From: Candidatus Benthicola marisminoris
GTDB taxonomy: Bacteria; Gemmatimonadota; Gemmatimonadetes; Palauibacterales; Palauibacteraceae
NCBI GenBank assembly: GCA_023554335.1
Contig: JAMJQR010000113.1
Span: 1 to 50,994, forward strand
DNA: 50,994 bases
Reading direction: 5' to 3'
Of this stretch, positions 19,420 to 42,573 are shown piece by piece. Positions within the stretch are counted from its first letter, which is position 1. Each line of letters opens with the position of its first letter. Below the pieces are notes generated by a model. The model made no database searches, was not told the DNA's origin, and saw nothing but the letters and a program-made list of their open reading frames with translations. A program made the translations under genes and the position numbers.

Positions 19420-19490
19420 TTGGCCCTCCAGGATTCGAACCTGGATTACCGGCTCCAAAGGCCGGGGTCTTGCCATTAGACGAAGGGCCA
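19420..19490 (-). tRNA. tRNA-Gln(TTG), CCA not encoded
   Basis: TGGCCCT/AGGGCCA acceptor stem, D arm GTCTAATGGCAAGAC, anticodon arm CCGGC-CTTTGGA-GCCGG, T arm CCAGG-TTCGAAT-CCTGG; followed by A-TCC. Confidence 0.97.
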
Positions 19491-38842: not shown

Positions 38843-39427
38843 TCACACGGCCTCCAGATTTCCGAATGCGTATCGCAGGTCGAATCGAGCCAATAGGGAA
38901 ACGAGGAGCTGGACCGGAAGTCCCATCACGTTGAAGTACTCGCCTTCGATCCGCTCCACGAGGGCTGCGCCGAGACCCTGTATCCCGTAAGCCCCCGCCT
39001 TGTCCATAGGTTCGCCGCTGGCAACGTATTCCGCGCATTCGGCCTCAACAAGCGATCGGAACCAGACGCGCGTGACGGCAACATCAGACTCGAGGCGCCG
39101 GGCCGAGCGCAGCGCGATCCCCGTGTGAACGTCGTGTGCGCGGCCCTGGAGCCGCATGAGCATCTTGATCGCATCAGCCTGATCCACCGGTTTCCCGAGG
39201 ATCCCATCCTCGAGCACGACCAGCGTGTCGGCCGCCAGTATCAGCTCGCCGGCGTCGAGCCGGGTCGCCTCGGCCTTTTCCCGGGCCAGGCGGCGCGCCT
39301 CGTGGTCCGCCGGAGCTCCGGGGTGCAGGGTCTCCTCCAGGTCGGGGGGTCGCACTTCATGCTCGAGGCCCAGGAGATCCAGGATCTCACGGCGTCTCGG
39401 CGATCCCGAGGCGAGTACGAGCTTCAA
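38843..39427 (-). CDS. maf: Maf-family nucleoside triphosphate pyrophosphatase (YhdE type)
   Basis: MKLVLASGSPRRRE, AADT, LGKP, DKAGAYGIQG, NVMGLP; TTG 39427 overlaps the dtd stop. Confidence 0.95.
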   Translation of the reverse strand: MKLVLASGSPRRREILDLLGLEHEVRPPDLEETLHPGAPADHEARRLAREKAEATRLDAGELILAADTLVVLEDGILGKPVDQADAIKMLMRLQGRAHDVHTGIALRSARRLESDVAVTRVWFRSLVEAECAEYVASGEPMDKAGAYGIQGLGAALVERIEGEYFNVMGLPVQLLVSLLARFDLRYAFGNLEAV

Positions 39428-39861
39428 CGCTCGACCACCAGCGTGACCGGTCCCTCGTTGACAAGCTCCACGCTCATTCTGGCTCCGAACTCGCCCGTTG
39501 CCACGGGCACGACTCCCGACCGGCACACATCCACGAACTCGTCGTACAGCGCCTCGGCCTCCCCGGGCGGTGCCGCGTCCACGAAAGACGGCCGCCGGCC
39601 ACGTGAAACGTCGCCATACAGCGTGAACTGCGAGACGATCAGCATCTCCCCGCCCGCTTCTCTCACGTCCAGGTTCATCTTCCCGTCCGAATCGGGGAAG
39701 ATCCGAAGTCCCCAGAGCTTCCGCGCCATCCAGTCCAGGGTCTCCCGATCGTCCCCCGCCGCGAAGCCGGCGAGCACCAGCAGGCCCGCCCCGATCTCCC
39801 CGACGGTTCGCCCTTTCACGGACACCGCCGCTCTCGAGACTCGCTGGACCACCACTCTCAT
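39424..39861 (-). CDS. dtd: D-aminoacyl-tRNA deacylase
   Basis: MRVVVQRV, LRIF, SQFTL, NEGPVT. Confidence 0.97.
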   Translation of the reverse strand: MRVVVQRVSRAAVSVKGRTVGEIGAGLLVLAGFAAGDDRETLDWMARKLWGLRIFPDSDGKMNLDVREAGGEMLIVSQFTLYGDVSRGRRPSFVDAAPPGEAEALYDEFVDVCRSGVVPVATGEFGARMSVELVNEGPVTLVVER

Positions 39862-39991
39862 ACCGGTCGCACTCCTGTAACGAGGTAACGCCCGTCTTGG
39901 CACGCTTGAAAGTAATCACCGGCCCGTTGATAACTCTACCTTACCTCGCGATACCGCAATTCACAGCGCCTCGCGCCCACCCAAAACACAT

Positions 39992-40038
39992 TTTTCCACA
40001 TCTTTTCCACGACCCTTCCACAATCATTTTTTTAAAAA
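39992..40038 (+). promoter_or_regulatory. Three phased DnaA-box-like 9-mers plus IHF-like AT tract (candidate oriC element)
   Basis: TTTTCCACA (39992), TTTTCCACG (40003), CCTTCCACA (40014) at 11-bp period; AATCATTTTTTTA at 40022-40034. Confidence 0.4.
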
Positions 40039-40140
40039 CCCTTCTTCAGTTGCACCTACCGCCTGCGTCTATCTGACGGCCGGCCGCCGGGGCTCTTGGC
40101 CGGCGCTCTCGAGTGCGGGGTATGACGAGCGGCGGGATGA

Positions 40141-40447
40141 GCGGACGGGGTAAGCAGCATGCGGAACGGGATGACGAGTCGTCGGAGCTGCGGGTGCTGG
40201 ATGTACTCAGCCCCTGGACGCTCCGAAGAGTCCCAGGGGCTGAGGAAGGATATATTTTCCGCACCGTAGCGTTCTTCTTGGTCGGTTGCGCTCCCCTTCC
40301 AAGAATCGACGAGCCTGGTACCGTTCGTCCGGTCAGCTGTGCGGGTTCTCTCGCTCACGGGGAGCTGAGTCATCCACGCCGAACAACTCGTCGTCGCTCT
40401 TGCGGTGCAGCGGCCTACCGGTCACGCCGGTGCCTCCTCCGCGGCAC
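40141..40447 (-). ncRNA. Candidate large structured RNA of unknown family
   Basis: Consensus-like promoter immediately upstream; nested long-range complementarity; branched inner domain; C(UUCG)G tetraloop on the minus strand. 3' end uncertain. Confidence 0.6.
40333..40425 (-). CDS. Candidate 30-aa small ORF / leader peptide MTGRPLHRKSDDELFGVDDSAPRERENPHS
   Basis: GGAGGAGG 7 nt before GTG at 40425, just downstream of the predicted transcription start; no recognised homology. Confidence 0.4.
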   Translation of the reverse strand: MTGRPLHRKSDDELFGVDDSAPRERENPHS

Positions 40448-40453
40448 GGAATA

Positions 40454-40481
40454 ATTATACAATAATTTTGTTTTCGGTCAA
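40454..40481 (-). promoter_or_regulatory. Near-consensus sigma70 promoter
   Basis: TTGACC-N16-TATAAT with AT-rich spacer and an A/T tract further upstream (40506-40516); predicted +1 near 40447. Confidence 0.7.
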
Positions 40482-40605
40482 CCCCGACTATGCAGCGATC
40501 TGATCTTTTTTTAAAACTTGGGCAATTCCCGCGGACATCCCGCTCCTGATCGCACCGTGCGGATCCCGCATAGGAAAGGCCCATCCGATTGTCAGGGGTG
40601 CTCAC

Positions 40606-42573
40606 TCAATCGGCGAGGAATACGGAGCTTTCCACAGCCAGCCGATCGGCATCCAGGACTCTGCCCTGCTCAGCGAGGAGCCGCAGGGTGCGATTCAGGA
40701 GGGCGTCCGCAGGGAGAGTCGTGGCAAGGCCGGTGGTCGTCCCGACGACGATCAAGGATTCCCGGCAGCGGGAGACCGCTACGTTCAATAGGCGGGGAAA
40801 GTCGGGGTTTCGTCGCTCGTTCAGGAACCAGCTCCCGCCGGGAGGAGCGTCGACGGTGTCCAGAATCACGGCGGTCTTTTCTCTGCCCTGGAAGCGATGG
40901 ATGGTAGCGATCTCGAGGTCCGAGGGCGCGGCTCGCCCGAGTCGTGAGCGAACCTGGCTCCATATCCGGCGCGATTGCAGGCGGTACGGCGTGACAACTC
41001 CCACGTCGTGTACCCCACGGCGAGCGAGGATCTCGAGCAGCTGGATCAGTACCTCGACGTGCGCCGGATTGGCACGCGACCTCTCCGCTCGCTCGACGAT
41101 GGGATCGAGCCCGACGGTATCCACCAGGAGAAGCGGCCGCAGAACGGCCGGCCGGGACGCAACCTCGGGAGCGTCCACCAGGCGTCCGCCGTAGAAGATG
41201 TCGCTGACCAGCTGACGAATCTTGGGCGCCATGCGGTACTGCTCGCTCAACATGGAGCACAGACCGTCCCGTGGATCGGGCAGGTGGCGACCGCCGTCCG
41301 GGTCGATCGACCCGGATTGACGGAAGATGTCCCGGCTGAGCCAGCGCGCCGCGCCCGGTGCCGTGGACATGACCACTGACGGCAGCTGCCGGAAGTCCCC
41401 TACGGCCACGGCCCGCTCGGACGACAGGCAGGCGCCTGCGAAAAGGTACGGGAGAGGAACGGTGCTGGCTTCGTCGACCAGCAGGGAGCGGAACCGAAGC
41501 TTCCACAGGTCGTCGCGAAGCGTGAGACGGGCGAAGGTGGTCAGGACGACATCGGCCCGAGCCAGCACCCTGGCGCCCGCGCGCTGGAATTCGGCAGTCA
41601 GGTGCCCCGCCCGCACCAGGGCCCCGGCCGCTCCCGCCTCGCGGGCACGGGCGAGCACGGTGCCTATTCGCTGCCGGAGTCCCGGCGACCGAGCCCTTGG
41701 GTGCACGATTCCAAGCTCTGCTTCCATCTCGCGCAGGGCCCGGGTCAACTTTCCGGGATCCTTCTCCTCCAGGCGCTGGACCACCGACTCGACGGACAGG
41801 TCCGCGTCCCCGGAAGGGCTGAAGCCGGCGCCCACCCGGACGACGCGGCCATCTGCAGCAGCCTCCGGCCCCATGTGGTCCGCGACCCTGCGGGCTGCCT
41901 CATCGACCGCGACGTTGGTGGTGGCCAGCACGAGCACCCGACCTTCTACCGCCAGCGCGGCCGCTGCCGCCCCGAGCAACCGGGTCTTCCCGGTGCCAGG
42001 CGGCCCCCAGACCAACTGTGTCCGGCTTCCGAGGACCCGCTCCAGGGCCTCCGCCTGACCACGATTGAGCCCCTCCCCGTGCGGTGCCACGGCGGGCCGC
42101 CGGCCGGTCTGAGGAAACTCCAGACCGAACAGGCCCAGAGCCGTATTCGTGTGGTATGCAGAGGGCTCGCCTGCCACGTGGCCAAGGCGGGCGTCGAGGG
42201 CTGAAAGGAGCCAGGTCGGGTCGAACGTGAGCTCTGCCGGACCGGCGAGTCGTCCCAGCCACTCGGTCATGTTGATTCGAATGCCGCGGCTGGCGGGGTC
42301 CCAGCGCGTGACGAATCCGAGGGCGTCCGCGTCCCGGGCCGCAACTCGAACTGCGTCATCAGGCCGGATCACATACCTTCCCGGCGGGAGAGTCCAGTCG
42401 TAAGCGAACCCGACCAGGTCCACGTCGACCTCGTGGCCGCCGGTTGCCTGGACAGGTTGCCCGATGCCCCGCCGACCCAGGTCGTCCTGGATCGCGAGGA
42501 TCTCCTCATCGAGAGCCTGCTCGAAGCACTCCAGGAGATCCGCTAGCGCCGTCGGCTCGGAAGTCGTGTTCAT
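40606..42573 (-). CDS. Superfamily 1B (Upf1/DNA2-like) helicase
   Basis: GLNRGQ, WGPPGTGKT, TNVAVD, LVDEAS, VGDFRQL, QYRM, TIHRFQGREK, LNVAVSR. Confidence 0.92.
   Translation of the reverse strand: MNTTSEPTALADLLECFEQALDEEILAIQDDLGRRGIGQPVQATGGHEVDVDLVGFAYDWTLPPGRYVIRPDDAVRVAARDADALGFVTRWDPASRGIRINMTEWLGRLAGPAELTFDPTWLLSALDARLGHVAGEPSAYHTNTALGLFGLEFPQTGRRPAVAPHGEGLNRGQAEALERVLGSRTQLVWGPPGTGKTRLLGAAAAALAVEGRVLVLATTNVAVDEAARRVADHMGPEAAADGRVVRVGAGFSPSGDADLSVESVVQRLEEKDPGKLTRALREMEAELGIVHPRARSPGLRQRIGTVLARAREAGAAGALVRAGHLTAEFQRAGARVLARADVVLTTFARLTLRDDLWKLRFRSLLVDEASTVPLPYLFAGACLSSERAVAVGDFRQLPSVVMSTAPGAARWLSRDIFRQSGSIDPDGGRHLPDPRDGLCSMLSEQYRMAPKIRQLVSDIFYGGRLVDAPEVASRPAVLRPLLLVDTVGLDPIVERAERSRANPAHVEVLIQLLEILARRGVHDVGVVTPYRLQSRRIWSQVRSRLGRAAPSDLEIATIHRFQGREKTAVILDTVDAPPGGSWFLNERRNPDFPRLLNVAVSRCRESLIVVGTTTGLATTLPADALLNRTLRLLAEQGRVLDADRLAVESSVFLAD

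Follow-up and report, generated by a model that had tools for sequence, protein, structure and literature searches.

In the 50,994-nucleotide (nt) window analysed here, the whole stretch from position 1 to 50,994 of contig JAMJQR010000113.1 (forward strand; GenBank assembly GCA_023554335.1) of Candidatus Benthicola marisminoris, a member of the Palauibacteraceae (Gemmatimonadota), a minus-strand promoter faces the stretch between a helicase gene and dtd, and the question that this locus raises is what is made from it. The answer is a noncoding RNA (ncRNA), stable, very abundant and previously undescribed, for which the locus is a gene in its own right. Taken as a whole, we favour the reading of a new gene for an abundant, structured ncRNA with its own promoter and a pseudoknot fold, the product of which probably associates with itself through palindromes. 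Positions in the RNA are 40448 minus the window coordinate, position 1 being the G at 40447. The gene comprises the following parts:

40454-40481, minus strand: sigma-70-type promoter, with -35 TTGACC (40481-40476), a 16-nt spacer and -10 TATAAT (40459-40454)
40196-40447, minus strand: conserved RNA unit of 252 nt, taken as the primary transcript (G at 40447 through the tail past the terminal hairpin) and marked by a conservation block with sharp ends, full-length covariance-model matches and the coverage edge at 40447/40448
40243-40447, minus strand: part seen as abundant RNA, about 205 nt (RNA 1-205), from the read depth in metatranscriptome X21

Transcription is documented by the raw reads of metatranscriptome X21, which shares its sample with the best DNA run (X1); about 12% of X21 was read. 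A total of 10,193 reads fell on 40176-40447, with a mean bin depth of up to 10,060 where the first mate lay on the plus strand and of no more than 11 in the other orientation, and 40243-40447 was covered about 10,000-fold on one strand. Since a first mate on the plus strand denotes, under the usual stranded chemistry, a minus-strand RNA, the direction of transcription agrees with that of the promoter. Depth was 0 in every bin of 39700-40175 and 40448-40700, including dtd and the 3′ end of the helicase gene. The coverage edge between 40447 and 40448 is the start predicted from the promoter; GUGCCGCGGAGGAGGCAC starts at 40447, 6 bases past the -10 hexamer. The opposite edge lies at 40242/40243, exactly the 5′ base of a terminal hairpin (RNA 205/206), where 1,228 molecules begin, and depth drops from 2,965 in the neighbouring bin to 126 over the hairpin itself. 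Either this hairpin is cut off the mature RNA, or a stem of such stability is lost when libraries are prepared. In two further RNA libraries, contigs span the RNA only and not its flanks (X4, 40259-40433, identical; X15, 40262-40436, with 1-3 differences), contigs alone being unable to prove transcription.

The promoter matches 11 of 12 consensus positions (TTGACC-16-TATAAT) and is the sole such site in 39000-41500, against a mean of 0.3 in shuffled sequence. A promoter-like pair scoring 8-11/12 was present in all 89 homologous loci with enough upstream DNA, and in 75/89 its -10 element ended 6 nt before model position 1. In blastn comparisons with relatives, the conserved block (40487-40192) opens at the -35 box and ends sharply about 10 nt past a UUCG-capped hairpin, and the conserved unit is therefore taken as 40447-40196. 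Within the genus (loci of g1), the RNA region was 84-89% identical, compared with 64-77% amino acid (aa) identity for the neighbouring proteins. The RNA is not translated: the three open reading frames that overlap it had no Pfam match at E <= 0.1, and their frames are interrupted in homologues by indels whose lengths do not divide by three and by a change of the only plausible start from GTG to GAG. The original prediction, made from the letters of the window, had named this promoter and placed the start of a discrete minus-strand RNA near 40447, and both proposals are supported by the loci and reads described above. The extent of about 300 nt that it gave, down to 40141, was too long.

The distribution of the gene was followed with a covariance model (R1) built from 17 sequences; as this one model was used for all model searches, more distant homologues outside the family may be missed. 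By blastn against 40 relatives, the region was recovered in 17, corresponding to 12/15 genomes of the same genus, 5/9 from other genera of the family and 0/16 from the sister family. R1 identified the RNA in 88/113 other genomes of the family and, own genus included, in 17/20 genera; among family genomes at least 90% complete, the window's own genome (G000) being one of them, it was present in 54/63. The matches were full-length (model positions 1-253), measured 247-311 nt and occurred once per genome, except in genus g24, where 11/12 genomes carry two copies. R1 matched 0/31 genomes of the sister family (f2), and in an even sample of the phylum it matched 6/6 family members and 0/144 other genomes. 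The RNA was also absent by R1 from three genera within the family (g10, 0/5; g23, 0/3; g25, 0/4), some of whose genomes are 92-95% complete, and a filter-free search downstream of the helicase gene in these genera, two g30 genomes and one f2 genome returned nothing (best E 0.15). These three genera show that a genus can do without the RNA, which is hence no essential ribozyme of the housekeeping kind. When one genome per species (185,579 species) was covered by a pattern scan, 25 matches resulted; R1 confirmed 17 of them as full-length copies, and all 17 belong to records with Gemmatimonadota or 'uncultured bacterium' in the title, one being Candidatus Carthagonibacter metallireducens (order Candidatus Palauibacterales). 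The other 8, in other phyla, were unconfirmed by R1 and are regarded as chance matches, and of 7 pattern matches on viral contigs 0/7 were confirmed as the RNA. The RNA family is thus restricted to one family of Gemmatimonadota, and together with its depth and the lack of an Rfam match (below) this agrees with the abundant lineage-specific ncRNA that had been suggested for the locus.

The fold of the RNA is a conserved branched structure closed by a pseudoknot. Its elements, numbered from the 5′ end, are as follows:

40430-40447, minus strand: P1 hairpin, RNA 1-5/14-18, 98.2% of alignment cells paired
40435-40440, minus strand: P1 loop GGAGGA, RNA 8-13, the 5′ strand of the pseudoknot
40411-40429, minus strand: P2 hairpin, RNA 19-22/34-37, stem covarying (GC/AU/GU)
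40260-40409, minus strand: core helices P3 (RNA 39-45/182-188) and P4 (51-53/177-179), which close the three-way junction that they share with the long arm and P9
40307-40393, minus strand: long arm, made of P5 (RNA 55-63/133-141), P6 (64-69/116-121) and P7 (71-74/104-107), with two large one-sided bulges
40345-40373, minus strand: P8, variable apical element, RNA 75-103, expanded by up to about 55 nt in other genera
40371, minus strand: RNA G77, at which RNA reads (X21) differ from DNA (X1 contigs)
40276-40304, minus strand: P9 hairpin, RNA 144-172 (144-149/167-172 and an inner GG/CC pair), loop GGAAGG..AGCGCAACCGACC
40245-40250, minus strand: 3′ strand of the pseudoknot, UCCUUC, RNA 198-203, directly 5′ of the terminal hairpin
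40206-40243, minus strand: terminal GC-rich hairpin, RNA 205-242, with a UUCG cap (40227-40224) and two helices counted for covariation
40196-40205, minus strand: conserved tail UACAUCCAGC, directly after the terminal hairpin

RNAalifold applied to 17 sequences predicted 62 pairs, 19 of them with compensatory changes, and an independent mutual-information scan of 50 sequences ranked the same stems at the top, the pair 56-140 displaying six pair types. For an alignment of 90 homologues fitted to R1, covariation was compared with that in 500 shuffles and with that of partners slid by 1-3 columns. Standard pairs occupied 93.0% of cells compared with 80.5% in shuffles, 63 of 77 pairs changed on both sides compared with 43.9, and the covariation score was 0.403 compared with 0.183, slid controls reaching at most 0.068; 0/500 shuffles attained the observed value of any of the three measures. 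At the junction, up to six pair types were found at the P3-P4 positions 39-188, 42-185, 51-179 and 53-177, while P5, P6 and P7 were paired in 95.9, 99.1 and 88.8% of cells, with changes on both sides at every pair. Among the loops, that of P9 is the most conserved, being near-invariant with some fully invariant columns, and its stem was paired in 95.5% of cells, with 8/8 pairs changing on both sides. The pseudoknot joins the P1 loop to the 3′ tail by 6-9 base pairs, 89.9% of cells being paired and 4/6 pairs changing on both sides, and its variants compensate one another (GAAGGA/UCCUUC, GGAAGA/UCUUCC, GGGAGA/UCUCCU, GGGAGGC/GCCUCCU). In 42/42 distinct combinations of loop and tail, the stability of this duplex exceeded the average for 200 shuffles. 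The terminal hairpin is likely a terminator. The tail that follows it has the consensus U(A/G)CAUC(C/U) and is not a U-run, a T-run occurring in only 6/89 homologues; it may be a lineage-specific termination or processing signal.

Parts of this architecture had been anticipated. A 5′ hairpin at 40447-40430 corresponds to the conserved and covarying P1, a long GC stem ending in C(UUCG)G (loop 40224-40227) is likewise present, conserved and covarying, and the covariation expected in relatives of a functional RNA is strong. In contrast, the long rod that the original prediction assembled from nested pairings (40407-40419/40149-40162, 40379-40395/40170-40185 and 40359-40376/40198-40214) draws on sequence at or beyond the terminal hairpin, where conservation stops at about 40196 and RNA-seq coverage already at 40243. 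Of the branched domain proposed to cap it, the hairpin 40299-40305/40275-40281 is P9, but the pairings 40339-40344/40259-40264 and 40325-40329/40308-40312 did not hold and are superseded by the covarying partners of P3, P5 and P7. Folding energy follows the revised extent: over 40100-40447 it was not unusual (z of -1.55 on the minus and -1.71 on the plus strand), and for the 252-nt unit z was -2.93 on the minus strand, where 2/200 shuffles folded as well, and -2.12 on the plus strand.

The X21 reads were clean except at 40371, where 2,457 C>A and 1,188 C>G mismatches were recorded among 9,995 reads, and contigs of DNA from the same sample (X1) had only C at a depth of 20. This could reflect a modified G77 causing misincorporation, or a mixed (tri-allelic) population that the contigs do not show.

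Comparison with Rfam 15 covariance models, by a gathering-threshold scan of the whole window and a permissive scan of 39850-40650, gave no assignment to a described family. The only match in the first scan was a tRNA at 19420-19490. Of the five matches in the second, none had an E below 0.52, each fell short of its cut-off by between 20 and 51 bits, and none was 6S, signal recognition particle (SRP), transfer-messenger (tmRNA), RNase P or T-box RNA, in keeping with the conserved cores of the last four that had been sought in the letters and not found. Models of riboswitches, T-box, raiA, OLE, ROOL and GOLLD were among those scanned, and the RNA matched none. A divergent RNase P RNA, tmRNA or SRP RNA is ruled out because the genome has its genes for these RNAs on other contigs, each scoring above its cut-off (C109, 253.4 bits; C105, 145.5 bits; C91, 48.7 bits). 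A further contig (C83, 4966-5145) carries at its end two partial matches to RNase P RNA, both below threshold (40.6 and 34.3 bits); these fragments may come from a second organism in the bin. In the literature searched (mostly outside subscription journals), no such RNA was reported in Gemmatimonadota, no paper paired 6S RNA with Gemmatimonadetes, and papers on Palauibacterales had no RNA topic by title or abstract.

How the RNA may associate is suggested by three self-complementary elements, for which palindromes were counted in the 90 homologues and in shuffled segments:

40334-40339, minus strand: palindrome CAGCUG in the J7/6 bulge, RNA 109-114 (palindrome count, covariation)
40317-40322, minus strand: palindrome GGUACC in the J6/5 bulge, RNA 126-131 (palindrome count)
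40417-40422, minus strand: P2 loop ACCGGU, RNA 26-31, self-complementary

At J7/6, a perfect palindrome of at least 6 nt was present in 75/90 homologues compared with 12.4% of shuffled segments, and its identity changes at one and the same site: CAGCUG in 48, CCGCGG in 18, CCUAGG and GCUAGC in 3 each, and UAGCUA, AAGCUU and CCAUGG in 1 each. Its second and fifth positions were AU in 69 sequences and CG in 21, and its third and fourth GC in 86, UA in 2 and AU in 1. At J6/5, a palindrome of at least 6 nt was found in 73/90 compared with 8.6% of shuffles (GGUACC, UGGUACCA, CUGGUACCAG, GGAUCC, ACCAUGGU). The P2 loop contained a palindrome of at least 4 nt in 90/90 compared with 54% of shuffles, with the cores CCGG, CAUG, UCGA and CGCG often extended to 6-8 nt (UCCGGA, UCAUGA, UUCGAA, CUCGAG, UCGCGA) and flanked by A. 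Altogether seven different palindromes occur at J7/6, five at J6/5 and at least six in the P2 loop. As controls, palindromes of at least 6 nt were at or below the shuffled level in the P1 loop, the P9 loop and J3/4, and reached 31% compared with 15% in the linker. All three palindromic sites were predicted to be accessible in the monomer (0.59-0.66 unpaired, compared with 0.37 overall and 0.07-0.16 in stems).

Adjacent or nearly adjacent nucleotides cannot pair within one chain, and changes that keep these palindromes therefore point to pairing between RNA copies. Genus g24 offers a further comparison, as its second, diverged paralogue lies at another locus (loci L090, L092, L105, L147-L156) and the two copies in one genome can differ at J7/6 (CCUAGG/CCGCGG in G063 and G066, CCAUGG/CCGCGG in G070, CCGCGG/CCUAGG in G068). 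Each remains self-complementary while differing from the other, which argues for self-pairing rather than a shared partner in trans. We consider it probable that the RNA pairs with further copies of itself through symmetric kissing contacts at three sites, namely the P2 loop, J7/6 and J6/5. In this mechanism, the palindromes in the P2 loop and the two bulges, switched from lineage to lineage, would pair symmetrically between copies and give at least a homodimer, and three different two-fold interfaces could give a closed higher-order assembly. A D2 tetramer requires three such interfaces per chain, and these would also permit a larger cage or lattice. A protein-free, self-assembling particle with three isologous kissing interfaces per chain (P2 loop, J7/6, J6/5) is accordingly worded here as a tentative extension, which we hold to be possible and not probable. 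Should it be correct, the RNA would be among the smallest natural chromosomal RNAs that build a closed quaternary structure, very highly expressed in uncultured marine-sediment Gemmatimonadota, and the divergent palindromes of the g24 paralogues would be natural orthogonal RNA assemblies that evolved after gene duplication.

Several known RNAs can be compared with this one. The dimerisation initiation site (DIS) of the retrovirus HIV-1 is a kissing-loop hairpin, and the P2 loop has the same layout: 7-11 nt, with a central palindrome of 4-6 nt between purines (AA-UCGCGA-A, AA-UUCGAA-A, AA-CUCGAG-A). Unlike the DIS, P2 belongs to a bacterial chromosomal small RNA (sRNA) with two further palindromes in bulges. 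The raiA motif RNA occurs in Firmicutes and Actinobacteria, and no Rfam match links it with the RNA described here. As far as its description in one source extends (PMC12968392), it is similar in being about 200 nt long and very abundant, with a conserved complex fold. The closest parallel is offered by the 'ornate' RNAs OLE, ROOL and GOLLD, which are homo-oligomers by cryo-electron microscopy in the account given in parts of one study (Kretsch et al., Nature 2025, PMC12286853). The same parts take switches of the OLE L9.3 palindrome from GGCC to GAUC or AGCU as evidence of intermolecular kissing loops, and apply the same reasoning to L21a of GOLLD (PMC12286853). To the extent that those RNAs are described there, the present one resembles them: it is a conserved multi-helix ncRNA that contains a pseudoknot, and its symmetric loops or bulges change from one palindrome to another. 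It differs from them in length (about 205-252 nt compared with about 550-830 nt), shares no sequence or model similarity with them, and is chromosomal, single-copy, fixed in context and confined to one Gemmatimonadota family, with none on viral contigs; moreover, their oligomers were observed, whereas those proposed here are deduced from comparing sequences. Natural RNA-only quaternary assemblies have been recognised recently, in few families and mostly among large or phage-associated RNAs. Here, a pseudoknot and three symmetric interfaces between RNAs are indicated by comparative data for an RNA that is short, chromosomal, single-copy and extremely abundant. It is a dominant transcript of uncultured, globally distributed sediment bacteria that current annotation misses, which matters for the interpretation of metatranscriptomes.

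A number of observations weigh against this reading. The 90-sequence alignment was fitted to R1 and favours the helices of the model, although the palindromes and the pseudoknot are exempt from this bias because R1 contains neither. The strand call from mate orientation presumes the usual stranded library chemistry, and the abrupt end of coverage at 40242/40243 may be an artefact that a very stable hairpin causes during library preparation. For oligomerisation itself, the argument is drawn from sequence comparison, and the sequences are related, so that palindrome counts do not represent independent events. Nor are the palindromes universal: 15/90 J7/6 sites retain only the inner 4-nt AGCU (CAGCUA or similar), and 15/90 J6/5 sites are without a perfect palindrome of at least 4 nt, the exceptions at J6/5 being the odd-length GGGACCC, GGUAACC and GGAACC and most sequences of genus g26. 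In g26, a hairpin with a GNRA loop (GUGC-GAAA-GCAC) takes the place of the J6/5 bulge (loci L098, L131, L132, L137, L140 and L144), as if the type of contact had been exchanged. The P2 palindrome measures only 4 nt in about half of the sequences, part of it could extend the P2 stem in some (e.g., the second copies of g24), and its fixed-column count was poor (61.8% paired) because loop lengths differ. A cofolded dimer was about 11 kcal/mol better than two monomers, which is expected of any palindrome-bearing RNA and carries little weight. Lastly, a dimeric protein could read the palindromes as recognition sites.

This last point leads to the explanation in which the RNA serves a protein, such as the helicase encoded upstream, as partner or scaffold, and its palindromes are binding sites of dimeric proteins. 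We regard this as unlikely. The upstream gene (40606-42573, minus strand) encodes a 655-aa SF1B-type helicase (Pfam AAA_11 and AAA_12) that is nearly confined to the same family as the RNA (f1, 107/113; f2, 1/31) and lies directly upstream of it, the order helicase-RNA-dtd being kept in 23/30 loci of a first set and 17/20 of a second. The remaining 7/30 comprise three loci of g27, which have dtd but no helicase, L063, in which dtd is present and the helicase lies outside the fetched stretch, about 1.4 kb further on, and three cut by contig ends; the other 3/20 are second copies of g24, which lie elsewhere. RNA and helicase are nevertheless separable in both directions, since g27 has the RNA in 3/3 genomes and the helicase in 0/3, while g10, g23 and g25 have the helicase in 12/12 and the RNA in 0/12. 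Zero reads were recorded on the helicase gene against about 10,000-fold depth on the RNA, and three independently changing palindromes would need three co-evolving dimeric binders. The N-terminal ~165 aa of the helicase have no Pfam match.

An analogue of 6S or Ms1 RNA, that is, an abundant, polymerase-binding promoter mimic too divergent to be recognised and taking the place of an undetected canonical 6S RNA, is another explanation to which we assign a low probability. What makes it attractive is distribution: canonical 6S (RF00013) had no match anywhere in the genome of the window and was found in 0/145 genomes of the order, while it occurs in other classes of the phylum (f10, 4/13; f11, 3/3; f12, 3/3), with weak sub-threshold matches in 2/31 genomes of f4 and 1/2 of f8 (G236). 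RNase P RNA, tmRNA and SRP RNA are accounted for elsewhere in the genome, and this RNA, like 6S and Ms1, is abundant, about 200 nt long and made from a strong, near-consensus promoter of the housekeeping (sigma-70) type. The two distributions are not complementary, however, as the sister family (f2, 0/31) and family f3 (6S in 0/71) are without both RNAs, and the 6S genes of other Gemmatimonadota classes lie outside the helicase-dtd context. The structures also differ. With large bulges on one strand only, the unpaired stretches being confined to the 3′ strand, the RNA is not an end-to-end rod with a two-sided central bubble, and it has no end-to-end closing stem; in their place it has separate 5′ and 3′ hairpins, a three-way junction and a pseudoknot. 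RF00013 (gathering score 46.4 bits) did not match 39850-40650 even at E <= 10, and the three evolving palindromes are left unexplained. The 6S/Ms1-like rod once envisaged for this locus therefore gives way to a branched fold closed by a pseudoknot, and the RNA raises anew the question of a substitute for 6S RNA in this class.

It seems improbable that the RNA is a trans-acting, base-pairing sRNA whose unpaired UCCUCC, CAGCUG and GGUACCA are seeds for mRNAs. Its abundance, its own promoter and terminator and its conserved single-stranded stretches would suit such a role, and UCCUCC, as read from the sequence, resembles an anti-Shine-Dalgarno element; yet UCCUCC covaries with the P1 loop of the same RNA and is thus occupied intramolecularly. 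Seeds for common targets should stay constant, but here the palindromes switch and paralogues in one genome differ. Base-pairing sRNAs also usually conserve far less architecture than the nine covarying helices and pseudoknot found here.

A cis-acting leader or riboswitch of dtd-maf-glpK, as the original prediction had offered, or a protein-coding or DNA-level element, is contradicted by the data and very improbable, despite the position of all primary copies upstream of dtd on the same strand: conservation and transcription both stop about 335-380 nt before dtd, with zero reads from 40175 down to 39700 (spacer and dtd), the spacer is unconserved except for one block (40041-39978, weakly conserved in four relatives), the second copies of g24 are not adjacent to dtd, no comparable element was seen upstream of dtd at five sister-family loci inspected by eye and none by model in the 31 sister-family genomes, and a coding role is contradicted by the frame-breaking indels, GTG-to-GAG change and absence of Pfam matches described above.

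Self-association of an independent ncRNA thus remains the favoured reading, and a few observations on the surroundings of its gene complete the picture. Downstream lie dtd (Pfam Tyr_Deacylase) and then maf, and the AT-rich block at 40041-39978 that four relatives share probably contains the promoter of dtd itself. At one of the second g24 loci (L092), the RNA lies downstream of a gene for an M1 peptidase, no other neighbour matched Pfam, and the peptidase offers no clue to function. The X1 DNA contigs break at 40076-40204 into short alternative pieces with 1-6 differences, which suggests strain variation in the unconserved spacer downstream of the RNA. Two AT-rich stretches that are alike in sequence, GTTTTAAAAAAAGATC at 40517-40502 and GTTTTTAAAAAAATGAT at 40039-40023, flank the RNA gene, and the second of them is followed by three GTGGAA repeats (40023-39987). 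These stretches may be UP-like elements, a promoter or operator of dtd, or the borders of an old insertion.

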